Source of the DNA: Candidatus Scalindua sp.
GTDB lineage: Bacteria > Planctomycetota > Brocadiia > Brocadiales > Scalinduaceae
NCBI GenBank assembly: GCA_031316235.1
Contig: JALDRA010000001.1
Location: 3,390,001-3,422,000, forward strand
Length of the DNA: 32,000 nt
Reading direction: 5' to 3'
The first letter of the stretch is position 1, and every line of letters begins with the position of its first letter. This document shows positions 8,317 to 30,116 of this stretch, in pieces. The notes under the pieces are model-generated. The model ran no database searches and was not told where the DNA came from. It saw nothing but the letters and a program-made list of their open reading frames with translations. The position numbers and the translations under genes are program-made.

Positions 8317-8384
8317 AACAGTATCCTACCACTCAATAGTGGAAAAAAAACAAGTACATGTACAGGAGTTACAAAATCATGTTT

Positions 8385-8548
8385 TATACTCATCTCATAC
8401 TGGATTTCGGATAAAATCCGAGATAACATTGAGTGAGTAAGGTCCTCGACGTCTAATCCGGGGAAAGTCTTCGGCGCTTTTTGTCCGGGGATACCTTCAC
8501 CAGGATCTGGTTTCCGGCAAGACCGAAAACCAGATCGGTTTTAGTATA
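8385..8548 (+). mobile_element. MITE-like structured repeat, copy 2 (long form with an inserted block of about 52 nt)
   Basis: TATACTCATCTCATACTGGATTTCGGATAAAATCCGAG ... ATCTGGTTTCCGGCAAGACCGAAAACCAGATCGGTTTTAGTATA. The extra block at about 8440-8491 consists of two related units of about 26 nt. Confidence 0.85.
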
Positions 8549-8652
8549 TCTGCGCCAGCGTTTCCGCCTGAACGAAAGAGTTGTGTCTGCCTGCTTCCGA
8601 TGCTCTGTTTACGGCAGCGGTACTGTGGAATGAGTTCGTCCGTACATACACA

Positions 8653-9847: not shown

Positions 9848-11203
9848 ATGGAACAGAGAAATTATTTAACCACGTATGAAGAGGCCGTAGAGTTTCTGTT
9901 GCAGGCGGTTGATTACGAAAGGTTGACAAATTATAAATATGATTTGATAAACTTTAACCTCAAGAGGATGGAGGAAATATTATCAGTAGGGCACGACCCT
10001 CACGAAAAGGGGCTGTATGTCCATGTAACCGGCACAAAAGGGAAGGGCTCTGTCTCAATAATGATTGCCTCAGCCTTGCAGGGTATGGGATACAAAACAG
10101 GTCTTTTTACTTCGCCACATCTTGTGTGTCTTGAAGAGCGGATCAAGGTAAACAACAGGATGGTATCACAAGAGATGATTGTGAAACTGGTGAATGAGCT
10201 TAAACCCTATATTGAGAGAAAAAGAACCGAAGATTACAATCTCTCTCCAACCTTTTTTGAAACAATAACGGCGATGGCACTCGTCTATTTTGAACGTGAA
10301 AAGGCAGACATTTCGGTACTGGAGGTAGGGTTGGGTGGGAGACTGGATGCCACAAATATTATTTCTCCTCTCGTTTCTGTTATAACGACCATTGGTTATG
10401 ATCATACCGATAAGTTGGGGCATACACTTGAAAGTATAGCAGGTGAAAAGGCCGGTATAATTAAGGAGGGGAAACCTGTAGTCTCTTCTCTCCAGGAACA
10501 CGAAGCGTTATCTGTTATTTCAAGAGTTTGCAGGGAAAAACAGTCTCGTTTATGTCTGATTGGAAAAGATGTTTTAATAAGAGATGTAAGGAAAGTGAGG
10601 AGAAACGGGTCATACGGGACAGAATGTACCATCAGTTCATGGAGTAGGGAGTATAAGGACATTTTTTTACCGCTGGTTGGGGTTCATCAGGTTGGGAACT
10701 GTGCTACTGCAATAGGAGCCCTGGAGGTTCTGGAGGACAGTGGTCAGCTGAAAATAAATCATGAAGAGGTTCGTGATGCGTTTTTAAAGATGAAGCTGCC
10801 GGCAAGAATCGAGATAGTTTCAAGAGAACCTCTTATTATCCTGGATACAGCTCACACCGTTGATTCAATGAAAGCCCTGAAAGAGGCGTTAAATGAGAAT
10901 TTCAGTTTTGACAAGCTGGTGCTATTATTAGGACTATCGGGAGATAAGGATCTTGAAGGTGTCCTGCGTGAGATAACGACTGTTGCAGATGAGCTGGTTT
11001 TGACGAGGACCGGTAATCCGAGAGAAGCAGAACCGAAACAATTAGCTGCTATTGCTAAAAAGTTTTTCCGCAAAGAACCGATAGTGATAGAAAATATTGG
11101 TGATGCATTAAAAGAGACAATGAAGATTGCTGAGATGAAATCCCTGATATGTGTAACTGGTTCTTTCTATCTGGCAGGTAACGTGAAAAAGATACTGAAG
11201 TAG
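9848..11203 (+). CDS. folC: bifunctional folylpolyglutamate synthase / dihydrofolate synthase
   Basis: 451 aa with the Mur-ligase-type P-loop VHVTGTKGKGSV, and ITTIGYDHTDKLG. Confidence 0.9.
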   Translation: MEQRNYLTTYEEAVEFLLQAVDYERLTNYKYDLINFNLKRMEEILSVGHDPHEKGLYVHVTGTKGKGSVSIMIASALQGMGYKTGLFTSPHLVCLEERIKVNNRMVSQEMIVKLVNELKPYIERKRTEDYNLSPTFFETITAMALVYFEREKADISVLEVGLGGRLDATNIISPLVSVITTIGYDHTDKLGHTLESIAGEKAGIIKEGKPVVSSLQEHEALSVISRVCREKQSRLCLIGKDVLIRDVRKVRRNGSYGTECTISSWSREYKDIFLPLVGVHQVGNCATAIGALEVLEDSGQLKINHEEVRDAFLKMKLPARIEIVSREPLIILDTAHTVDSMKALKEALNENFSFDKLVLLLGLSGDKDLEGVLREITTVADELVLTRTGNPREAEPKQLAAIAKKFFRKEPIVIENIGDALKETMKIAEMKSLICVTGSFYLAGNVKKILK

Positions 11204-11247
11204 CTTATGTTCTCTCTACCTCTACCATAAATCAGTGATGCAGTGTT

Positions 11248-11811
11248 TTATTTAAAAAGAGAGAAGTCTACCTCATATTTTTCTGTTCCAAAATCTTTTT
11301 GAACAATAACTGTGGTCTGCGCATTCAGTGAGATTTCTGAATAGGGAAAACTGGCAACGATAAAGAGCGCTTTGTGCTGAGGGTCTTTTTTTCCCATTTT
11401 CGGTTTTTTCATGGCTTTTGGTTCGATAACCCTTGAATCCTGCATTAATAGTATTTTATAGACATCCTCTCCGCCACGATAGCTTATCTCCAGGGTGTCT
11501 GAATCCAGAATAGTGTTAACATCTTCATCGGTTAATTTCTTTTTTGCCCTTACTTTCATGGCGGATATAATGGTCACGCGGATAAGCTTGCTTTTTATTA
11601 TTCCCCCACTGAAGTCTGGCCATTTTCCGAACGTAGCGGGTTTTACAAGTTCTGATTCGAAGATGTTTTCTGCGTGAGTTTCTCCGTATCTGATTACTTC
11701 GTCAATCTGCTCCTGTGAAGGATTCCTTTCAATACCCTCTGAGGTACTTGAAAGAGCCACAGACAGAGCAGATACGATAGTGAAGACTAAAAGACTCCAT
11801 TTTTTCGCCAT
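11248..11811 (-). CDS. hypothetical secreted protein
   Basis: The start was moved to the ATG at 11811, which is preceded by AGGAG. It has a signal-like N-terminus (MAKKWSLLVFTIVSALSVALSS). I recognise no family. Confidence 0.55.
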   Translation of the reverse strand: MAKKWSLLVFTIVSALSVALSSTSEGIERNPSQEQIDEVIRYGETHAENIFESELVKPATFGKWPDFSGGIIKSKLIRVTIISAMKVRAKKKLTDEDVNTILDSDTLEISYRGGEDVYKILLMQDSRVIEPKAMKKPKMGKKDPQHKALFIVASFPYSEISLNAQTTVIVQKDFGTEKYEVDFSLFK

Positions 11812-12009: not shown

Positions 12010-12272
12010 TAAAAAATATTATTTTATAAGTACTTACGGAAATGTTGAGGTATATACTTCATTCGTTTTGTAAGTAAAAAGGTTTGAATTAATAAGTGGG
12101 TAGTGTGTATCTCCAGTGTTATTACTCCTGCCAGACCTTTTCCGTATGAGTGCGTTCGTAAGTCATTCTTTACTTTATGAGGTATTTTTAGGGCTGCCCC
12201 CCGATAAAAAACACGACTGGCACGCTCTTCGGAATGACTATCGAGTTGATGTGACCGGTTTGTCTGGTCAAG

Positions 12273-12384
12273 TATACTCATCTCATACTGGATTTCGGAT
12301 AAAATCCGAGATAAAATTGAGCGAGTATACCTTCACCAAGATTTGGTTTCCGGTAAAACCGAAAACCAAATCGGTTTTAGTATA
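12273..12384 (+). mobile_element. MITE-like structured repeat, copy 3 (112-nt short form, used here as the type copy)
   Basis: TA-TACTCATCTCATACTGGATTTCGG ... CCGAAAACCAAATCGGTTTTAGTA-TA. It has a left hairpin TCGGAT-AAA-ATCCGA and a right hairpin of about 13 bp. Confidence 0.88.
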
Positions 12385-12445
12385 TCTATTGATAAATGTA
12401 GATTCTTGAACCTTATAGGAGATCTGTTGTACATTACCTGTTATT

Positions 12446-13300: not shown

Positions 13301-13321
13301 AATGAGTTTTGTCTGTTTTCT

Positions 13322-13366
13322 GTGACTAGGGTGCAGGAAAAAACAACTTGTTGTTCACGCCTGGGC
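13322..13366 (+). repeat. 45-nt hairpin repeat, copy A
   Basis: GTGACTAGGGTGCAGGAAAAAACAACTTGTTGTTCACGCCTGGGC matches the reverse complement of 18849-18893 at about 38 of 45 positions. Confidence 0.7.
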
Positions 13367-13444
13367 CCTTAGTCTCCAAGCCAACATTTTCCTGCTCTTT
13401 TTGACGGGAGATTGTCACCTGAGAGGCGGTAGCTGCGTTTTTTC

Positions 13445-13556
13445 TCTACTCATCTCATACTGGATTTCGGATAAAATCCGAGATAACTTTGAGCGAGTAT
13501 ACCTTCACCAGGATTTGGTTTCGGGTAAAAACGAAAACCAGATTGGTTTTAGTATC
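13445..13556 (+). mobile_element. MITE-like structured repeat, copy 4 (short form, flanked by TC instead of TA)
   Basis: Same sequence as copy 3 with a few substitutions. The dinucleotide on both sides of TACT...AGTA is TC. Confidence 0.85.
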
Positions 13557-13616
13557 TGAGTGTGTTCGTTAGTATGTTTCTACTTTTATAGGTACGGCGG
13601 TAAGTGATAAAAGGCA

Positions 13617-16681: not shown

Positions 16682-16686
16682 TATTA

Positions 16687-16798
16687 TATACTCATCTTAT
16701 AATGGTTTTCGGTTTTACCGGAAATAAAATCTTGGTGAAGGTATACTCGCTCAATTTTAACTCGGATTTTATCCGAAAACCATTACGAGATGAGTATA
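16687..16798 (-). mobile_element. MITE-like structured repeat, copy 5 (112 nt, TIR subtype)
   Basis: The termini TATACTCATCTTATAATGGTTTTCGG and CCGAAAACCATTACGAGATGAGTATA form a 24/26 inverted repeat. The internal sequence is the reverse complement of copy 3. Confidence 0.88.
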
Positions 16799-16799
16799 C

Positions 16800-17882
16800 A
16801 TGATCGATAAGAAACAGGATAAACAGATGCAGGAAAATTACGACGTGGTAATTGTGGGAGCCGGTCCTTCCGGTGCGATGGCCGCACGGGTGCTGGTAGA
16901 GAAGGGACTGAGAGTGCTGATAATTGAGAAAAAGAGACTACCTCGATACAAGATATGCTCTGGAATCATATTCAGGAAATCACAAGATATAACAGACAGA
17001 TATTTTGGGCAAATCCCGAAATCTGCTTATGTGGAGCCCGAGCTACTGCAGGGAGTCCGGATGTGGGATTGCAGTGGAGGCTACCGTGATATGCCATTCA
17101 GTAAGGAGGGGAGAGGGGCACCAAATGTTTGGCGGTCAGAATTTGATCACTGGCTTGTTCGCGGTTCTGGCGCAGAGGTTCGGGATCTTTTCGTTTTTTT
17201 GGGTTTTGATGTTGAAGGCGACTCTTTAACACTCAAATGCCGGGATATGAGAGAAGAGAGGGAAGTTCGTGTTACCGGTAAGTACCTGGTAAGTGCGGAG
17301 GGTGGCAAATCCTTGATTCGGGCTCAGCTTGATCCGGAGTTTGAAAATGGATTGAGATGGTTTGTTGCATATCAGAATTACTATGAAGGTGAATCAGACC
17401 TTGACCCCAATCTCTATCATGGTTTTCTTGATCCGCAATACGGTGACGTCTATGCATGGTTTAGTGTGAAGGACGGACTGCAGATATTTGGTACAGCAGT
17501 AAAGAAGGGGAGCATGATTGCTCCCTATCTCATGAAATATACTGAATTTTTGAAGGATCAATTCAGTCTGAAACTCAAGGAGATGGTTAGAAAGTCTGGT
17601 TGCGTGGGAAACAATATGTGTCCGGAGGGTAAATTTTATCTGGGCAAGGGAAACGTGCTGCTGGTTGGAGAAGCAGGTGGGTTTTTGAACGCATTTGGCG
17701 AGGGTATATCCTGTGCACTTACATCGGGTTTATGTGCCGGAGAGGCCATAATTAAATGTTTGGAGTCCGGAGAAAGTGCGCTTTCCTTATATACGGAGCT
17801 TACGAAACATGAAAGAAGACTCACCCGGCTGTCATGGAGGATGGGGGGGAAGATGGCGGGCAGGAATCTTATGCCCTTATAG
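16800..17882 (+). CDS. NAD(P)/FAD-dependent oxidoreductase (geranylgeranyl-reductase-like family)
   Basis: 360 aa with the N-terminal dinucleotide fold YDVVIVGAGPSGAMAARVL..IIEKK and the later motif LLVGEAGGF. Confidence 0.75.
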   Translation: MIDKKQDKQMQENYDVVIVGAGPSGAMAARVLVEKGLRVLIIEKKRLPRYKICSGIIFRKSQDITDRYFGQIPKSAYVEPELLQGVRMWDCSGGYRDMPFSKEGRGAPNVWRSEFDHWLVRGSGAEVRDLFVFLGFDVEGDSLTLKCRDMREEREVRVTGKYLVSAEGGKSLIRAQLDPEFENGLRWFVAYQNYYEGESDLDPNLYHGFLDPQYGDVYAWFSVKDGLQIFGTAVKKGSMIAPYLMKYTEFLKDQFSLKLKEMVRKSGCVGNNMCPEGKFYLGKGNVLLVGEAGGFLNAFGEGISCALTSGLCAGEAIIKCLESGESALSLYTELTKHERRLTRLSWRMGGKMAGRNLMPL

Positions 17883-17918
17883 TGTTTGAAAGAAAACTGC
17901 CCATCTACTGCGTTGCTG

Positions 17919-17972
17919 TAATAATTCCGTAATCCTCACGTACTTGAGTACGTTCCGGTTACGCAATTATTA
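17919..17972. repeat. 54-nt bipartite imperfect palindrome (structured element downstream of the oxidoreductase gene)
   Basis: The outer arms TAATAATTCCGTAATCC / GGTTACGCAATTATTA pair at 14 of 16 positions, counting one G-T. The inner stem ACGTACT/AGTACGT is perfect. No T-run follows. Confidence 0.6.
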
Positions 17973-17997
17973 CGCGCCTTGTACCTGGACGGTTTTC

Positions 17998-18110
17998 GTT
18001 CAAACACAGGGTCTCTGTTCAAACACAGAGGCACTGTTCAAGCACTCTATATTTCTAAAGAGTGGGCAGTGGGCAATAAACAGTTGACAGTTAGCAGTTG
18101 GCAGTTGACA
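17998..18110. repeat. cluster of short tandem repeats (19-mer x2.5; heptamers AGTGGGC x2 and CAGTTGR-type x4)
   Basis: GTTCAAACACAGGGTCTCT / GTTCAAACACAGAGGCACT / GTTCAAGCACT at 17998-18046. AGTGGGCAGTGGGC at 18061-18074. ACAGTTG ACAGTTA GCAGTTG GCAGTTG ACA at 18080-18110. Confidence 0.85.
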
Positions 18111-18750: not shown

Positions 18751-18811
18751 TACGCCATGTTGTAAATAAGGTTACGTATTGTATCCAATTCTTTATTAGG
18801 AAGCCAGGAAA

Positions 18812-18849
18812 CCATGAGATTAGGAATTGCTAATTCCCTAATCTCATGG
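18812..18849. repeat. 38-nt near-perfect palindrome flanked by an 8-nt direct repeat CCAGGAAA
   Basis: CCATGAGATTAGGAATT-GCT-AATTCCCTAATCTCATGG. CCAGGAAA occurs at 18804-18811 and 18851-18858. Confidence 0.7.
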
Positions 18850-18893
18850 CCCAGGAAAGAACAACAAGTTGTTTTTTCCTGGGCCCTAAACAC
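18849..18893 (-). repeat. 45-nt hairpin repeat, copy B
   Basis: GCCCAGGAAAGAACAAC-AA-GTTGTTTTTTCCTGGGC forms a long stem. It is the reverse complement of the element at 13322-13366. Confidence 0.7.
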
Positions 18894-18982
18894 ATCTCGT
18901 CTCTTAATAGACACTCTCTACCTCTGCCGAAACTTACTCAATTAATCTCTAAAAATAAAAAAACATGACAGGTATAATATCA

Positions 18983-19289
18983 TCAATCGCCCAGAGGACT
19001 CCTCACATCAAGTATATTTTTTGTTGCAACATGAGTGTAGATCATTGTGGTTTGAAGGTTTCAGTGCCCGAGCAACTCCTGAATTTTCCTGATGTCATAT
19101 TCTTTTTCCAGAAGATGGGGAGCAAAACTGTGTCTGAGGGTATGTACCGATGCCGGTTTTGTGATATCAGTTTTTATCACAGCACTCTTAAAAGTCTTCT
19201 GTAACGATGCGGGATGCATGTGATGACGGCGAACCGTATGAGTACGTGGATCTACTGACCTAAAACTGAACGCGATCAAATAACAAGTT
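18983..19289 (-). pseudogene. intI: integron-integrase-like tyrosine recombinase, 3' remnant with an in-frame TGA
   Basis: Translation gives ..[92 protein letters not shown]. This carries the box II motifs ([16 protein letters not shown] with the catalytic Tyr) and an IntI-like tail (V-R-SPL). About two thirds of the N-terminus is missing. The TGA is at 19061-19063. Confidence 0.8.
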
Positions 19290-19309
19290 CAGAGATCCGG
19301 ATCTCTGAA
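19288..19309. repeat. perfect 22-bp palindrome at the truncation point of the integrase remnant
   Basis: TTCAGAGATCC|GGATCTCTGAA. The integrase reading frame opens at 19289. Confidence 0.9.
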
Positions 19310-19340
19310 TTTATAGAATTTTTCTTCATGCCAAGTGCAA

Positions 19341-19426
19341 GTATAACAAATTGAACTTTACATTCGAGATGTTGAACTATAATATGCTGTCAAATTATAG
19401 AATAAATATAAAAATTAATGTTAGGG
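19341..19426 (+). other. junction region ending in the crossover-type core GTTAGGG (attI-like or decayed attC; unresolved)
   Basis: It begins with GTATAAC (an RYYYAAC-like core) and ends with G|TTAGGG at 19420-19426. It contains direct TTGAACT repeats and two short hairpins, but no clean L''/L' pairing. Confidence 0.4.
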
Positions 19427-19447
19427 TAAAAATAAACTGGTACATAA

Positions 19448-19720
19448 ATGGAATTTGAATGGGATAAAAAAAAAGCAGCATCAAATGAAATAAAACATGG
19501 TGTCTCATTTCAAGAGGCTGGTACAATATTTGGTGATCCATTAGCTTTAACATACAATGATCCAGATCACTCAATTAACGAAAATCGATATATTACTTTT
19601 GGAATTTCAAGACTGGGCAAGAACTTGGTAGTGTCCCATACTGAGCGTGGCGATAAAACCAGGATCATTAGTGCTCGCCAAATGACAAAGAATGAAAGGA
19701 CAATATATGAAGAAGGTTAA
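19448..19720 (+). CDS. brnT: BrnT-family (DUF497) type II toxin
   Basis: 90 aa with FEWDKKKAASNEIKHGVSFQEA..FGDP..DPDHS..E.R..T.G....L.VVSHTERG.KTRIISARQMTKNE, the typical BrnT pattern. Confidence 0.85.
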   Translation: MEFEWDKKKAASNEIKHGVSFQEAGTIFGDPLALTYNDPDHSINENRYITFGISRLGKNLVVSHTERGDKTRIISARQMTKNERTIYEEG

Positions 19721-19937
19721 AAAGGAAGATGAATTAAAACCTGAATACAAGAGATCAGAGCTAGGCAAAGGGGTCAGAGGAAAATATTATGAGTCATATA
19801 AATCCTCACATAACCTTGTTCTTCTCAATCCGGAAGTTGCAAGCGCTTTCCCGACTGAGCAGGCAGTAAATAAGGCACTTATGTCATTAATTGCCAAATC
19901 TAAAACAGCAAAAACCCTAACAAAAAAATCCAGTTGA
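19707..19937 (+). CDS. putative antitoxin partner of BrnT
   Basis: Small ORF overlapping the toxin stop, with AAAGGA 6 nt before the ATG. It has the motif ELKPEY.RSELGKGVRGKY seen in small antitoxin-type proteins. Family assignment is tentative. Confidence 0.6.
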   Translation: MKKVKKEDELKPEYKRSELGKGVRGKYYESYKSSHNLVLLNPEVASAFPTEQAVNKALMSLIAKSKTAKTLTKKSS

Positions 19938-20047
19938 CCAGAAATGTGATATTTTTTTTGTCGGAATAGGGCTGCAAAAAAACGGTTTCAAGTCTATCAG
20001 AGCCAATTTTCATGTCTATTTCCACCAACTGATTTAAAACGTTATAC
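19915..20047 (+). other. candidate integron attC site (133 bp) of the brnT/antitoxin cassette
   Basis: R'' is CCCTAAC (19915-21), followed by a 4-nt spacer. L'' is AAATC[C]AGTTG (19926-36, with an extra C). L' is CAACTGATTT (20026-35), followed by a 5-nt spacer and R' G|TTATAC (20041-47). R'' is the exact reverse complement of GTTAGGG at the cassette start. Confidence 0.75.
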
Positions 20048-20076
20048 CATGGAAATAAAAAACAACGGAGTATTCA

Positions 20077-20373
20077 ATGTCATATGAATCGCAAAGCATC
20101 AGGGATGCTATTGAGGAAGTTAATAGGACATACTTCCTGCCAGCGATACAAAGAGAGTTCGTTTGGGACACATATCGCGTAGAAAAGCTGTTTGATTCAA
20201 TAATGGGTGATTATCCGATTAGCTCATTTTTGTTCTGGAAAGTTAGAGAAGAAAATAAGAAGGACTGGGCTTCTTATGAATTCATCAGAAATTTTGACCA
20301 AGACGCCCCACACAACATTTACACTGAACTATCTGGAATCAACAAAGACATATACCTTATTTTATGGCCATAA
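20077..20373 (+). pseudogene. DUF262 (GmrSD/ParB-like nuclease N-terminal domain) gene, truncated after about 98 codons
   Basis: YFLPAIQREFVW, LFDSIMGDYPISSFLFW is the N-terminal DUF262 signature. The frame stops just where the conserved DGQQR motif would be expected. Full-length family members are several-fold longer. Confidence 0.7.
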
Positions 20374-20475
20374 AAATAAGCAAGTAGAACCGCTACTCAA
20401 CCATACCGCGGGATACGTGGTTTAATTTTAAAACTAAATTCTTGTGCGGCTTATCAAGGGTGTCGTTATTTGTCT

Positions 20476-21228
20476 ATGAAAATAGTCTCTTGGAACTGTA
20501 ACGGGGCTTTAAGAAAAAAGACCCAAGAAGTAGATAAGCTTGATGCAGATATTATTATTATACAAGAATGCGAAGATCCTGCCTTGTCAACAAAAGATTA
20601 TCAAAATTGGGCTGGAGACTATTTGTGGGTCGGTGACTCAAATCATAAGGAAATCTGTGTATTTCCTAAAAACAATAATGAAGTAAAACGCCTGGACTGG
20701 TATGGAGAATTTGAAATAGAAGGCTTGAGTAGTCATAGCTCTTCTATAAAGTGGACAACTTATGATTTAAAGTTGTTTCTTCCTTGTAAAGTAAACGAAA
20801 GCTTTAATATTTTAGGCGTTTGGACAAAGGGTACAGATTCAGAAGTCTTTGGATATATTGGCCAGTTCTGGAAATTCCTTCAAATTCACAAAAAGAATCT
20901 ATCGACAAGTAGGCAAATAATTATAGGGGATTTTAATAGTAACAAAATATGGGACAAAGCTGATAGATGGTGGAACCACTCAGATGTAGTTTGTGAATTG
21001 AACGATATCGGCCTTATAAGCTTATTTCATCACCAACACGTTGAAAATCAAGGGAAAGAGTCTATTCCTACGTTCTTCATGCACAGAAAAAAAGAAAAAT
21101 CATATCATATTGATTATGCATTTATATCAACTGATTTTGTAAATAGCAGTAATATTGAAATTGGTGGAAAGGAAAGTTGGCTATCATTAAGTGATCATAT
21201 GCCAATAAGCGTGACTTTAAACAGTTAG
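20476..21228 (+). CDS. endonuclease/exonuclease/phosphatase (EEP) family protein
   Basis: MKIVSWNCNG.., IIIIQECE, IIGDFNS, and SDHMPISVTL at the C-terminus are the classic EEP/ExoIII-like motifs. I prefer the ATG at 20476 over the TTG at 20470. Confidence 0.85.
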   Translation: MKIVSWNCNGALRKKTQEVDKLDADIIIIQECEDPALSTKDYQNWAGDYLWVGDSNHKEICVFPKNNNEVKRLDWYGEFEIEGLSSHSSSIKWTTYDLKLFLPCKVNESFNILGVWTKGTDSEVFGYIGQFWKFLQIHKKNLSTSRQIIIGDFNSNKIWDKADRWWNHSDVVCELNDIGLISLFHHQHVENQGKESIPTFFMHRKKEKSYHIDYAFISTDFVNSSNIEIGGKESWLSLSDHMPISVTLNS

Positions 21229-21282
21229 CCATGCCATCAAATTGACGCCAAAAAGCGGCGCAATTTATGGCAAGCGTTGTAC
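21216..21282 (+). other. candidate integron attC site (67 bp) of the EEP cassette
   Basis: R'' is TTTAAAC (21216-22). The hairpin GCCAT[C]AAATTG[A]CGCC-loop-GGCGCAATTTATGGC (21233-71) has extra C and A on the 5' arm. A 4-nt spacer precedes R' G|TTGTAC (21276-82). A GCCAT tandem duplication lengthens the 5' spacer. Confidence 0.65.
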
Positions 21283-21290
21283 GTGAGAGT

Positions 21291-21701
21291 ATGAAGAAAG
21301 ATTCACAAGTTACTGGTAATATTGGGCTCTACTGGACATGCTATCATCTCTCTCGCATGGGCTGAAATGCAATGCCAACATCTCGAAACGCACGTGGCGT
21401 AGACATTATTGCCTATACCGGCGACTGTTCCCAGATGATATCCCTACAAGTCAAAACCCTTAGTAAGAGAAATCCCGTCCCACTCGGTAAGTCACTTGAC
21501 AAATTAATGGGGTAGTTCTGGGTAATCGTAAACAACGTAGTAGCTGCTCCTCCTCAGACATATATCATGCTGCCTCAGGAAGTCAAAGACCTTGCACACC
21601 GTGGAGAGAAGGATGGAAGAGTATCTTACTGGCTTCAACCTTCATCATACTGCACAGAACAGTTTCATGAGGCCTGGAACAGAAAAGGTAAACCAAATTA
21701 A
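21291..21701 (+). pseudogene. nuclease-fold (PD-(D/E)xK-like, inferred) gene inactivated by two in-frame stop codons
   Basis: A single frame reads MKKDSQVTGNIGLYWTCYHLSRMG*NAMPTSRNARGVDIIAYTGDCSQMISLQVKTLSKRNPVPLGKSLDKLMG*FWVIVNN..YIMLPQEVKDLAHRGEKDGRVSYWLQPSSY... The TGA is at 21363-65 and the TAG at 21513-15. There is no frameshift. The GVD...QVK spacing resembles a PD-(D/E)xK core. Confidence 0.6.
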
Positions 21702-21704
21702 AAC

Positions 21705-21766
21705 GTACAACATGCTGGCGTTAGGGACCGCTCGTGCCTTGCGGCCCCAGACCAGCGGCGTTGGGC
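21705..21766 (+). other. candidate integron attC site (62 bp)
   Basis: R'' GTACAAC (21705-11) is the exact reverse complement of GTTGTAC at the cassette start. An imperfect hairpin (GCTGG..GGG.CCGC / GCGG.CCC..CCAGC) follows. R' is G|TTGGGC (21760-66), which fits GTTRRRY perfectly. Confidence 0.7.
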
Positions 21767-21984
21767 TTAAAAAATATAAGGAGATTTGTTATGTTCTTGA
21801 AGACGAGGAAGGTTTAGCCAACATGCGTCACCTTGGGAAATGCATCGATTGGCTTGGCAAGGCCATTATTCCCACTATAGATAACTATCCAAAGTCTTAG
21901 TCTTTACAGATAACAAAGGATATGCTCTATTCTCCTATTGTCGAATAACGTATATCCAGAACGTTGAGAAGAAAAGATGAAAAT

Positions 21985-22005
21985 GTATAACAAATAAGGT
22001 TAGAT
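21985..22005 (+). other. collapsed core-site pair GTATAAC-7 nt-GTTAGAT
   Basis: An R''-like and an R'-like 7-mer lie only 7 nt apart. The 11-mer GTATAACAAAT is identical to 19341-19351. Confidence 0.4.
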
Positions 22006-22094
22006 TGTGTGAAGAGGAACGGAAAACAGCGAGTTTTTTATAGATTTCTGCTATTACTGTTTTTCGTTGCTTACCCATGTCGTTTGACATTGAT

Positions 22095-22361
22095 ATGACA
22101 CATAAATTAATAGCGGCGTCGTTTCTTATAGCATCAGTCACCCTTGTTCGTCTGATACTGAAGGACAACTGGGACAATGTAGCGGCGCTATCGAATTTCA
22201 AAGGGCCGGTCGAAATTATTGGCGCTGAAAATGACACGGTTATCCCGGTGAGACACGCAAAGGCTCTTGCCGCGGCTATTCCCGGATCAAAGCTGTCGAT
22301 TATTGATGGAGGCCATAATGATTGGTCTTACGAGAGCCGAGTGAAAATTAGGAATCCATGA
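22095..22361 (+). pseudogene. alpha/beta-hydrolase C-terminal fragment
   Basis: ..FKGPVEIIGAENDTVIPVRHAKALAAAIPGSKLSIIDGGHND.. carries the acid (D) and His regions of the catalytic triad. The nucleophile-elbow part of the fold is absent. Confidence 0.55.
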
Positions 22362-22379
22362 GGTGTTTTGCCAGAAACG

Positions 22380-22447
22380 GTCGAACCAGGTGTTCCACCG
22401 GAACTGCGGGAAAGGGTACTCGCCTGCCGGTGAACTTTTCGTTCAAC
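22380..22447 (+). other. candidate integron attC site (68 bp), last of the array
   Basis: R'' GTCGAAC, 5-nt spacer CAGGT, L'' GTTC[C]ACCGG, 25-nt loop, L' CCGGTGAAC, 5-nt spacer TTTTC, R' GTTCAAC. R''/R' complementarity is 6/7. It abuts the stop codon of the histidine kinase gene. Confidence 0.75.
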
Positions 22448-22449
22448 TG

Positions 22450-24192
22450 CTAACCCGCAGAATTTATCTGGTGTATGGGCAGGGAAATGATAAATTTTGT
22501 TCCGCTACCCGGTATGTTTTCAACCGCTATTCTCCCTTTATGTAACAGCACAATATGTTTTACAATTGAAAGCCCCAGGCCTGCTCCTCCAAGTTTTCTC
22601 GATCGGGATTGGTCCACCACATAAAATCTTTCAAAAATTCTGGACAGGTGTTTTTTCGGAATACCTATTCCGGTATCTGATATCTGGATGGTGACCTCAT
22701 TTCCCTGTCGGTGTAATGAGATTTGAATCTCTCCTTTTTCAGTATACTTGATGGCGTTGTCAATTAAGTTTATAAATACCTGTTCCAGTTTAAACGGGTC
22801 TGCAAAGAGGAGGGGAAGCGCCTCATCGGTAGTGTAACGTAACTGTATGTTCTTCTCTGTTAATCTCTGGCTGAAGATCTTGAGAACGTTTTCTATCAGA
22901 ACTTTTAAATTCACCTCTCCTGATTCCAGGCCGGTATTTTTTTCTTCCAGCTTTGACAATAACAGCAAATCGTCAACGATGGTGATCACCCTGTCTGTAT
23001 TTCTCTTGATGATATCCAGATAATATTTATTCTTCTCTTCGATGCCATCTTCCATAGTCTCAATAAATCCCTTTATCGCCGTAAGCGGTGTTCGTAACTC
23101 GTGTGAAACATTTACTATAAAATCTTTTTTTGTCTTTTCGAGATTCCTGATCTTTGTTATATCGTGAAGCGTCGCAACCAATTCATCTTTATTGCAGAAA
23201 GTAGCGCTGCACAAATATACCTTCTCCTCCAGCACTACCTCACTCTCAAGGTTTGTTTTCTCCTTTCTTGCCTTTTTTATCAATTCACCAAAGGTAAGCT
23301 CTCTTAAGACCTCCCAGTAAAATTTCCCTTTAGCAGAATTGTTCTGTACGATCCGTTCAAAGCTCTTATTACAGATGAGTATCTTTCCTTTCCTGTCCAG
23401 CACACAAAGCCCCTCTTTGATTGAGGTGATAATGTTTTTAAGTTCCTCTTTTTGATACGAGAGTTTGGAAAAAAGAGTCTTTATCTGGTCTGTCATATAA
23501 TTAAAACTATCTGCAAGCTCTTTGAGCTCGTCTTTATTGCGGAGAATGACTCTGACATCGAAATCTCCATGAGCTACCTTGCGGGATGCCCTGTTCAATG
23601 CCCTGATCGGTTTCGATAAATTCCGTGAAAAGAAAAGTGCAGCCAGCAGTGAGAAGGTAACGATAATCATGGTTATAATGAGAATATTTCTCTTTAATAA
23701 GTGGAGTAGGCTCTTTATATCCTTTAAGAAAAGGCTCATTCTCAGGATATGGGTGATATGTCCGTCACTCTCCATTGGAATTGCAACATACAGCATCTCT
23801 TCTGTAACGGTAGTACTGAAACGCAACGTTTTACCGACCTCACCTTTTAGGGCCTCCATTATTTCGGGTCTTTTTCTGTGATTGTCCAGTAATTCTGGAT
23901 TTTTTTCGGAATCAGCCAGGACTAAACCTGTCGAGTCTATGACCGTAATTCGGGACTGTATCTGGCTTCCGAGACTCTTGACCAATATGTCCAGTTTGTC
24001 AAATCTGCCTTCAGCTAAAAGGGGAGTTATCTTTAATTGCAGCGTCAGGCCCAGGTTTCTCAGGCTGTTTGTCAGGGTGTCTATGTGATGAACTTTTATT
24101 GCTTTAAAAGAGAGGGGGATGATTAAGGCTGAAAGAGTGCATATGACAAATAAGTAACCGCCAAAAATTTTAAAAAAAATTGATTTTTTCAT
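22450..24192 (-). CDS. sensor histidine kinase (two TM segments, extracytoplasmic sensor, HAMP, PAS, HisKA, HATPase_c)
   Basis: H-box VSHELRTPLT, N-box NLIDNAIKYT, G-boxes DTGIGI and GGAGLGLSIV. The start is set at the ATG at 24192 (MKKSIFFKIFGG.., first TM), not at 24312. Confidence 0.88.
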   Translation of the reverse strand: MKKSIFFKIFGGYLFVICTLSALIIPLSFKAIKVHHIDTLTNSLRNLGLTLQLKITPLLAEGRFDKLDILVKSLGSQIQSRITVIDSTGLVLADSEKNPELLDNHRKRPEIMEALKGEVGKTLRFSTTVTEEMLYVAIPMESDGHITHILRMSLFLKDIKSLLHLLKRNILIITMIIVTFSLLAALFFSRNLSKPIRALNRASRKVAHGDFDVRVILRNKDELKELADSFNYMTDQIKTLFSKLSYQKEELKNIITSIKEGLCVLDRKGKILICNKSFERIVQNNSAKGKFYWEVLRELTFGELIKKARKEKTNLESEVVLEEKVYLCSATFCNKDELVATLHDITKIRNLEKTKKDFIVNVSHELRTPLTAIKGFIETMEDGIEEKNKYYLDIIKRNTDRVITIVDDLLLLSKLEEKNTGLESGEVNLKVLIENVLKIFSQRLTEKNIQLRYTTDEALPLLFADPFKLEQVFINLIDNAIKYTEKGEIQISLHRQGNEVTIQISDTGIGIPKKHLSRIFERFYVVDQSRSRKLGGAGLGLSIVKHIVLLHKGRIAVENIPGSGTKFIISLPIHQINSAG

Positions 24193-26356: not shown

Positions 26357-26403
26357 GTGTTTTTTCTCGTATTTCATCCGAAAACCATTATAAGATGAGT
26401 ATA
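26357..26403 (-). mobile_element. MITE-like structured repeat, copy 6 (one-end fragment)
   Basis: CTCGTATTTCATCCGAAAACCATTATAAGATGAGTATA matches the reverse complement of the left end of the family. The rest of the element is missing. Confidence 0.7.
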
Positions 26404-26461
26404 TTTACCGTAGTCCGCTTCGATCAGGTATCCAGGGGGGGGGAGGGAAGGTATTGATTGT

Positions 26462-29948: not shown

Positions 29949-30116
29949 TATATGTCAAAACCAGACCGGTTTTTGGGTTTTCTAAAAAGCAAAGCCTGGC
30001 TGCTGGTATCCCCGGACAAAAAATGCCGAGGACTTTCCCCGGACAAAAGGTGTCGAGGATTTTGATCGCTCCGTTTTTTCTCAGATTTTTTTCGAAAACA
30101 TTATAAGATGAGTATA
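29949..30116 (-). mobile_element. MITE-like structured repeat, copy 7 (long form, diverged)
   Basis: It ends ..TTCGAAAACATTATAAGATGAGTATA. It contains two tandem 27-nt units, CCCCGGACAAAAAATGCCGAGGACTTT (30010-36) and CCCCGGACAAAAGGTGTCGAGGATTTT (30037-63). These are homologous to the reverse complement of the extra block in copy 2. Confidence 0.75.

Follow-up and report, generated by a model that had tools for sequence, protein, structure and literature searches.

A 32-kb window of a Candidatus Scalindua genome (contig JALDRA010000001.1, forward strand, positions 3,390,001 to 3,422,000; coordinates below count from its first letter) contains a 3.7-kb island, 18752-22456, flanked by conserved genes for a DUF456 protein and a histidine kinase (HK). 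The island holds the remnant of an integron integrase gene (intI) on the minus strand, an attI-type recombination site with a sequence resembling a cassette promoter (Pc), and a series of plus-strand open reading frames (ORFs), all in one orientation, interspersed with cassette recombination sites of the attC type (Table 1). An original prediction, made from the sequence alone, had described a decayed chromosomal integron here; the co-orientation of the ORFs that it reported was confirmed, as was the position of every 7-mer that it quoted. Nucleotide homology to L180, from a related Scalinduaceae genome, stops at 18751 and restarts at 22457. In L180 the orthologous DUF456-HK slot does not contain the island, which is lineage-specific on this comparison, in agreement with the expectation that the locus would not be identical and syntenic in relatives.

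Table 1. Features of the island and dispersed repeats of the window; attC scores come from the class 1 and environmental covariance models described in the text
Feature	Position	Strand	Evidence or description
intI pseudogene remnant	18983-19279	-	TIGR02249 match and homology to full-length IntI relatives
Perfect 14+14 palindrome, AAGTTCAGAGATCC / GGATCTCTGAATTT	19285-19312		Repeat search
Direct repeats with TATAGAAT, 84 nt apart	19303-19319 and 19387-19403	+	Repeat search
Pc-like promoter, TTTACA-N17-TAATAT, facing the array	19357-19385	+	Promoter scan
attI site, TATAGAATAAATATAAAAATTAAT / GTTAGGG, crossover G/TT at 19420	19396-19426	+	Alignment of relatives
Cassette 1, 621 bp	19421-20041	+	brnT toxin gene (19448-19720) and overlapping small putative antitoxin gene (19692-19937)
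attC of cassette 1 (site 1), 133 bp	19915-20047	+	Class 1 model 21.8 bits (E 2e-3); environmental model 35.9 bits (E 3e-6)
Truncated GmrSD/DUF262 N-terminal fragment, 98 of ~570 codons	20077-20373	+	Pfam GmrSD_N 1e-11, profile 3-57/199
Intact endonuclease/exonuclease/phosphatase (EEP)-family ORF, likely ATG 20476	20470-21228	+	Pfam Exo_endo_phos 4e-7, full profile
attC of EEP cassette (site 2), R' GTTGTAC at 21276	21216-21282	+	Class 1 model 22.8 bits (E 1e-3; match 21223-21282); environmental model 20.8 bits (E 7e-3; match 21223-21282)
Pseudogene cassette, 484 bp	21277-21760	+	136-codon pseudogene ORF (21291-21701)
Probable attC of 135-aa-family cassette (site 3)	21705-21766	+	Class 1 model 13.8 bits (E 0.16); 7/7 core pair
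Mini-site GTATAAC-AAATAAG-GTTAGAT, R''- and R'-like cores adjacent	21985-22005	+	Class 1 model 14.8 bits (E 0.095); environmental model 12.6 bits (E 0.47)
5'-truncated alpha/beta-hydrolase gene	22077-22361	+	Pfam Abhydrolase_1, profile 192-239/245; NCBIfam RutD-type, 169-237/258
Terminal attC, canonical geometry	22380-22447	+	Environmental model 32.7 bits (E 2e-5); class 1 model 14.0 bits
Dispersed repeat copies	38-95, 8382-8553, 12268-12389, 13442-13561, 16684-16803 (inverted), 26360-26406, 29955-30079

The integrase remnant and the attI region

The minus-strand remnant retains the catalytic C-terminus of an integrase (HxxR ... LLGH ... Y box; translation of 19279-18986, containing VRRHHM). 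Its match to the NCBIfam integron integrase model TIGR02249 (124.8 bits, model positions 222-312/315) exceeds that to XerD by 42 bits (82.5 bits) and that to the IntI1 model PRK15417 (106 bits), which bears out the IntI-type assignment of the original prediction. When eight full-length IntI relatives were used as tblastn queries against the window, the sole match was 19258-18992, corresponding to residues 327-415 of the ~415-aa relatives at 85% identity; neither an N-terminal intI remnant nor a second intI was found in the 32 kb. Only the last 89 of ~415 codons are left, about 78% of the gene (its N-terminal part) being deleted, and an in-frame TGA at 19061-19063 interrupts what remains. The remnant is an integron-type recombinase by ancestry, not by function, and the locus encodes no intact integrase able to recombine attI with attC.

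A metagenome scan recovered 80 loci (L095-L174) with IntI relatives 67-87% identical to the remnant, most of them open frames of 413-419 codons. These full-length ORFs led us to reject a conserved "mini-IntI", which a first protein search returning only proteins of 78-172 aa had brought up; the recurrent 152-aa length among those proteins stems from an internal Met that is conserved at "MLPESL". The clade nearest the remnant (~413-419 aa; for example, the L095 ORF at 219-1469) carries an N-terminus some 80-90 residues longer than that of IntI1 (337 aa). Its close members bear source names including Nitrospira, Nitrospirota, Thermodesulfobacteriota, Acidobacteriota, Spirochaetes and a Methanobacteriota archaeon metagenome-assembled genome (MAG), which suggests a wide cross-phylum spread.

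The intergenic region retained between the remnant and attI is about as long as in the relatives, so the deletion spans approximately from the intI start codon to codon ~326. An internal deletion of ~1 kb has thus removed intI codons ~1-326, and a nonsense mutation has hit the remainder. Precisely at the junction of remnant and intergenic region lies a perfect 28-nt palindrome, picked out as a minus-strand hairpin of terminator type, which is not present in the equivalent region of the relatives and whose right half overlaps the upstream TATAGAAT repeat. This palindrome may be a scar of the deletion, or a hairpin.

Upstream of the lost start codon, the layout of intact integrons persists. At least 20 related integron loci carry the motif ATAGAATAAAnnTAAAAAnTAAT-GTT 140-157 bp upstream of the intI start, and in an alignment of the relatives on the attI GTT, ATAGAATAAAnnTAAAAAnTAAT directly 5' is common to ~20, with complete divergence 3' of the GTT. 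This conserved pattern, ending abruptly after the GTT, is the one expected of an attI site accompanied by its cassette promoter and places the attI crossover of the window at GTTAGGG (19420). The Pc-like boxes of the window lie 62-63 nt from the crossover GTT, the same spacing as TTGACA-N17-TATAAT in L116, and ~20 relatives have (C)TTGACA-N17-TAnAAT about 62 nt upstream of theirs. Both attI and the Pc-like sequence are intact in sequence at the locus, and both are conserved in sequence and spacing with the relatives. An ATAGAAT-like motif pair equivalent to the two TATAGAAT repeats also occurs in L096, L171 and L124, at positions near -24 and -110 relative to the crossover; the repeats are candidate IntI-binding sequences, the upstream copy possibly being an accessory one.

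attC sites and cassette junctions

attC sites were sought with two covariance models, both trained without any sequence from the window. The class 1 model was built from only 15 attCs of class 1 integron arrays on plasmids (VIM-4, aadB, aac(6')-Ib, arr-3, cmlA, aadA1, aadA2, dfrA1, dfrA12, dfrA27, gcuC, gcuF, catB3, estX and qacL), all of which share one geometry: R''(7), 5 nt, 3 bp, 1-nt bulge, 6 bp, variable part, 6 bp, 3 bp, 5-6 nt, R'(7). The environmental model was built from 68 attCs of the IntI-relative loci. In an unfiltered search of both strands of the window (64 kb), the six best matches of the class 1 model all fell on the plus strand within 19341-22447, and elsewhere it gave two matches, both of at most 8 bits. 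The maximum in 99 kb of related Scalinduaceae DNA was 12.7 bits for the class 1 model and 14.6 bits for the environmental model, and nothing in that background reached the five best window matches of the former. As a positive control, the class 1 model was applied to the 80 IntI-relative loci, where it gave 89 matches of 12-52 bits; nearly all of them lie upstream of intI on the minus strand, where cassette arrays are expected.

At least one of the models puts three sites at E < 0.01, a fourth being marginal, and every one of them lies on the plus strand; IntegronFinder takes at least two attCs on one strand to define an array or an attC cluster that has no integron integrase (CALIN). A covariance search for attCs, of the kind proposed with the original prediction, gave scores well above background, in this region and on this strand only. 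The bulged C of site 1, site 2 and the terminal site aligns to the bulge column of the models. A ranking of all AAC...GTT pairs by constrained DNA folding energy did not discriminate these sites, long unrelated hairpins coming out on top. In two of the metagenome loci (L109, 9225-10234; L110, 11307-12039), attC matches also occur on the plus strand downstream of intI, besides the usual upstream minus-strand array, which suggests a second array or a CALIN in opposite orientation there.

Two candidates were rejected. The sixth class 1 match, at 19341-19377 (10.9 bits), or a site extending over 19341-19426, is a stretch of the Pc/attI region common to the relatives. A fifth site that the original prediction had placed near 20384-20426 folds poorly and is matched by neither model.

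The terminal site is the most regular, with the form GTCGAAC-CAGGT-GTT[C]CACCGG ... CCGGTGAAC-TTTTC-GTTCAAC, and it ends 10 nt before HK-region homology to L180 restarts. Its bottom strand folds in textbook manner: the R box pairs over 7 bp, the 5-nt spacers stay unpaired, and the L box carries a bulged (extrahelical) G. Site 1 comprises R'' CCCTAAC, a 5-nt spacer, L'' AAT-C-CAGTTG with the bulged C, L' CAACTG-ATT and R' GTTATAC; its whole-site fold is unexceptional (z -0.2) because of the long central part.

Site 2 forms a strong bottom-strand DNA hairpin (-14.4 kcal/mol, z -3.3), with the bulged C and A of the top-strand L'' arm (bottom-strand G and T) on the expected arm. A tandem 5-mer, GCCATGCCAT, lies at 21229-21238 inside this arm. 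Because of it, the canonical-looking TTTAAAC (21216) stands too far from the bulge, by 7 nt, and both models align AGTTAGC (21223) as R'' in its place; the tandem may represent a small duplication by which the site was damaged. Site 3 combines R'' GTACAAC, a GC-rich hairpin and R' GTTGGGC (21760) with an atypical L box, the class 1 model flagging non-canonical pairs; its R box and stem form a hairpin of -13.6 kcal/mol (z -1.3). We consider it a probable attC, in part on account of the 7/7 complementarity of its R'' with the preceding R'. The mini-site at 21985-22005 scores at or near the background maximum in both models and may be an attC whose interior was deleted, or a chance occurrence.

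In an integron cassette, the R'' core is expected to be the reverse complement of the GTTNNNN at the start of the same cassette, and the original prediction had rested chiefly on four such pairs. We evaluated this relationship at junctions taken from independent predictions only, namely the crossover of attI and those R' and R'' cores that the models define. From attI to site 1 (GTTAGGG/CCCTAAC) and from site 2 to site 3 (GTTGTAC/GTACAAC), all four variable positions matched (4/4 each); the remaining junctions matched at 1/4 (site 1 to site 2, GTTATAC/TTTAAAC), 1/4 (site 3 to mini-site, GTTGGGC/GTATAAC) and 2/4 (mini-site to last site, GTTAGAT/GTCGAAC). With the 7-mer composition of the window as reference, the probability of a perfect match is 0.0064 for a random pair, and that of at least two perfect pairs among five consecutive ones is 4e-4. 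The mismatched junctions coincide with truncated genes, which fits cassette-fusing deletions.

Two of the four predicted pairs thus hold up and two do not. Both 7/7 pairs (19420/19915 and 21276/21705) coincide with junctions that were predicted independently and are therefore genuine signatures of cassettes. Neither 6/7 pair (20420 and 22082) lies at a model-supported R' site, and each has an equally good alternative partner; when any GTT within 1 kb upstream is allowed, 63% of random R''-type 7-mers (NNNNAAC) find a 6/7 match and 11% a 7/7 match. These 6/7 pairs are at chance level and are not evidence. Two units therefore keep the full capture signature: the brnT/antitoxin cassette (19421-20041) and the 135-aa-family pseudogene cassette (21277-21760). 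The heptamer GTATAAC occurs twice on the plus strand (19341 and 21985), each copy heading a weak attC-model match, and is the exact complement of R' GTTATAC (20041); this correspondence is probably a coincidence.

Cassette contents, relatives and genomic setting

The first cassette encodes a BrnT toxin (Pfam BrnT_toxin 2e-27, full profile length) and, overlapping it by 29 nt, an 81-aa putative antitoxin, which no Pfam or NCBIfam antitoxin model matches. The two ORFs are conserved together in the array of the intact integron L139, where homologs of brnT (61% aa identity) and of the antitoxin ORF (54%) are followed by a 39-bit attC; another brnT homolog is present in L105. Beyond this cassette lies the GmrSD fragment: a full-length GmrSD query matched only 20110-20364 by tblastn (residues 8-96), the homology stopping just before the DGQQR motif. 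Neither model finds an attC between this fragment and the EEP gene, whose product also has a weak NCBIfam match to ExoIII.

The second cassette with a full capture signature is compact, its ORF starting 14 nt past the junction and its attC 4 nt past the stop. The ORF carries TGA at 21363 in place of a near-invariant Trp, TAG at 21513 in place of Asp, and a one-codon insertion. It belongs to a family with 1455 homologs, typically 135 aa long and up to 84% identical, of which the nearest (L175) is not attC-flanked, indicating that the family is not exclusively cassette-borne. From 21761 to 22379, no convincing ORF was found until the hydrolase fragment, whose homologous part comprises the C-terminal ~80 residues only. 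Within this stretch, a good ribosome-binding site and ATG (AAGGAGATTTGTTATG, ATG 21791) open an 8-codon ORF, and a 37-codon frame one base off runs on to 21900; the segment 21776-21900 may be a frameshifted small cassette gene.

The remainder of the window is of housekeeping character, with genes for ProRS, an MqnC-like radical SAM protein, DprA, DHQ synthase, a Mur ligase, an M50 peptidase, MnmA, a Na/Ala symporter, an FAD protein, DUF456, the PhoR-like HK and pyruvate kinase. No transposase was recovered from the 32 kb when the large ORFs beyond the island were scanned with Pfam, and no Rfam family matched anything in the window. The original prediction had called the island more A+T-rich than its flanks; this is modestly true (38.9% GC versus 42.1% in the rest of the window, with 35.2% in the island's first 2 kb), but several other parts of the window are as A+T-rich as those 2 kb, making composition a weak argument.

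Gene order from the M50 peptidase through MnmA, the symporter and the FAD protein to DUF456 is kept in three related contigs, and what follows varies. L180 again has, downstream of DUF456, a convergent HK ortholog (75% aa identity); the 5.8-kb interval between the two carries genes for an M48 peptidase and an SNF2 helicase plus two small ORFs, and neither an intI nor an attC signal is seen there; in L176, HSP20 genes follow DUF456. The HK beside the island is 81% identical to the copy of one Candidatus Scalinduaceae MAG, in which the neighbours of HK differ, and 55-65% identical to those of other Scalindua/Brocadiaceae genomes. In L006, a Scalinduaceae MAG, a full-length GmrSD/DUF262 gene (9874-11589), 47% identical to the window fragment, lies directly downstream of an HK ortholog in the same relative orientation, adjoins the pst/phoU operon and has no attC matches. 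The slot next to the HK gene may repeatedly receive defence genes.

Several repeats were recorded in the window besides those of the attI region. A dispersed intergenic family of ~110-170 nt with internal hairpins (for example, TATACTCATCTCATACTGGATTTCGGATAAAATCCGAGATAA ... GGTTTTAGTATA) has at least six copies in the 32 kb, which look like miniature inverted-repeat transposable elements or repetitive extragenic palindromic elements. A second, palindromic repeat of 52 nt (GGCCCAGGAAAGAACAACAAGTTGTTTTTTCCTGGGCC) occurs at 18843-18894, in the 230-bp spacer from DUF456 to the end of the intI remnant, and at 13321-13372, directly after the M50 peptidase gene; the two copies are 83% complementary. 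Finally, the intergenic region upstream of DUF456 carries, at 17891-17998, a long imperfect palindrome with a strong DNA fold (about -22 kcal/mol).

Loss of the integrase and fate of the array

We are highly confident that the locus represents a sedentary chromosomal integron of a Candidatus Scalinduaceae bacterium, one that has lost its integrase and is decaying. The identification as an integron follows from the identity of the IntI remnant, the conserved attI and Pc, the attC model matches, the two perfect core pairs and the L139 homolog of the brnT cassette; the identification of decay follows from the in-frame stops at conserved residues and the truncated GmrSD and hydrolase genes. The interpretation of the original prediction, an integron recording both capture and decay, is supported. 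Each observation that it had named beforehand as counting against it (background scores for all attC sites, an identical and syntenic locus in distant relatives, core complementarity no better than in shuffled controls) was looked for, and none was found.

Several findings weigh against this interpretation. The attC scores of the window (14-36 bits) are at the lower end of what intact arrays show (14-52 bits). In the bottom-strand folding proposed as a check, the whole-site folds of two sites are no better than shuffles. The R'' of site 2 is ambiguous, being TTTAAAC in the original prediction and AGTTAGC in both models, and site 3 is reported by one of the two models only, the environmental model having passed it over. 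Finally, the cassette polymorphism that the original prediction suggested looking for is not seen: the only other copies of the locus, L001 and L002, are 100% identical to it.

In the original platform, intI would have lain on the minus strand, with attI and Pc divergent from it. Promoterless cassettes would have been captured by IntI-mediated recombination between attI and the folded bottom strand of attC, the crossover at G/TT leaving each cassette with an initial TTNNNN complementing its own R''. The truncations of the GmrSD and hydrolase genes may reflect deletions that fused neighbouring cassettes. Without a local IntI, the array would be frozen, barring an integrase that acts in trans. 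Of the captured genes, the putative toxin-antitoxin (TA) pair next to attI, situated behind the predicted Pc, would be the likeliest to be expressed still, and it may have helped to retain the locus.

Action in trans is the core of the alternative that survives best, in which the array is not frozen but forms a CALIN-like reservoir whose cassettes are still excised and reinserted by a functional IntI elsewhere in the genome or on a mobile element; the element would then be alive in function despite its intI pseudogene. We regard this as unlikely, though far from negligible: at least three attCs keep the canonical R/L-box geometry and the bulged base, attI is intact, and CALIN cassettes can be mobilised in trans according to the literature (PMC4889954; PMC9668308), yet the window contains no second intI, two other assemblies of the locus are identical, and the truncation, fusion or pseudogenisation of several cassettes speaks against recent turnover.

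A second alternative concerns the history of the array rather than its nature. The cassettes at 20420-21766 could have been inserted secondarily, at a secondary GTT, into an older GmrSD cassette extending from 20042 to ~22005, as opposed to a linear array eroded by deletions. The exact complementarity between the R' of site 1 and the head of the marginal mini-site would fit such a nested insertion, and the span of 1.96 kb would suit a full-length GmrSD cassette. However, tblastn found no C-terminal GmrSD coding remnant at 21767-21984 or elsewhere in the window, the mini-site scores at background level, and GTATAAC has its second copy at 19341 when ~0.3 copies are expected by chance in the region (base-composition estimate). 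We therefore consider nested insertion very improbable.

Least credible, and already largely refuted, is a generic defence or TA island beside an XerC/XerD- or phage-type recombinase fragment, with hairpins that are chance structures or terminators: BrnT, GmrSD and nucleases are typical of defence islands, a full-length GmrSD gene stands beside the HK ortholog of another Scalinduaceae genome without attC matches, and two of the four originally predicted 7-mer pairs are at chance level, but the recombinase fragment belongs specifically to IntI, the conserved attI and Pc are shared with intact integrons, the best matches of an independently trained attC model all lie here on one strand, and two junctions are perfectly complementary.

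The decaying integron thus identified resembles known systems, namely sedentary integrons with inactivated intI (e.g., in Xanthomonas) and CALINs (as IntegronFinder defines them) next to intI pseudogenes, in having a chromosomal intI pseudogene beside a co-oriented, attC-bounded array of mostly promoterless cassettes that encode TA, unknown or defence-type functions. It differs from them in its anammox Scalinduaceae host, its very short array (~4-5 cassette units) with heterogeneous attCs, and the nature of the lesion, a near-complete internal intI deletion sparing attI and Pc as opposed to point mutations or insertion-sequence insertion. With the environmental ~413-419-aa IntI clade (L095-L174), to whose C-termini the remnant is 74-87% identical, it shares the attI motif, the Pc position, the divergent intI/attI layout and attCs recognised by the models, whereas most members of that clade have full-length intI ORFs and higher-scoring attCs and the window keeps the last 89 codons only. 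The attC architecture (R''-5 nt-3 bp-bulge-stem ... stem-3 bp-5/6 nt-R') is also that of class 1 mobile integrons (In/Tn402-type), and the class 1 estX attC (GCTGCACCGG...CCGGTGAGC) closely resembles the terminal site of the window (GTTCCACCGG...CCGGTGAAC). Unlike class 1 integrons, the locus has no Tn402/tni, qacEdelta1/sul1 or resistance cassettes, sits in a chromosomal housekeeping setting, and derives from another IntI clade with an N-terminal extension of ~90 aa. With environmental IntI sequences as best matches and no transposon context, it falls outside mobile integron classes 1-5.

Integrons have been reported in Planctomycetes/Planctomycetota before (PMC4889954; PMC9668308; Rhodopirellula baltica in PMC3108266), CALINs and intI pseudogenes are likewise known from the phylum, and the original statement that integrons are poorly characterised there overstates the novelty. 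Integrase inactivation is pervasive, affecting 10-46% of intI genes (PMC3108266), and 15/279 CALINs have a nearby intI pseudogene (PMC4889954). The locus is accordingly a well-supported but ordinary case of a known kind of element and leaves the current understanding of integrons unchanged. Our literature search found no paper linking integrons to Scalindua or anammox genomes specifically. We raise only tentatively the possibility that this is the first documented integron platform of an anammox bacterium (Scalinduaceae), located in a DUF456-HK interval that acts as a family-wide variable integration and defence hotspot, and preserving a clade-wide attI/Pc module (ATAGAATAAAnnTAAAAAnTAAT followed by GTT, with Pc 62-63 nt upstream) usable to define attI for the large cross-phylum ~415-aa IntI clade.

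For the organism, the locus indicates that anammox planctomycetes have hosted integrons. It would provide a snapshot of the death of a platform, in which an internal intI deletion was followed by nonsense mutations and cassette-fusing deletions as attI, Pc and the proximal TA cassette persisted. To our knowledge, attI sites are unknown for most integrons, and for this reason the conserved attI/Pc module could serve as a practical attI marker in a widespread environmental IntI clade.

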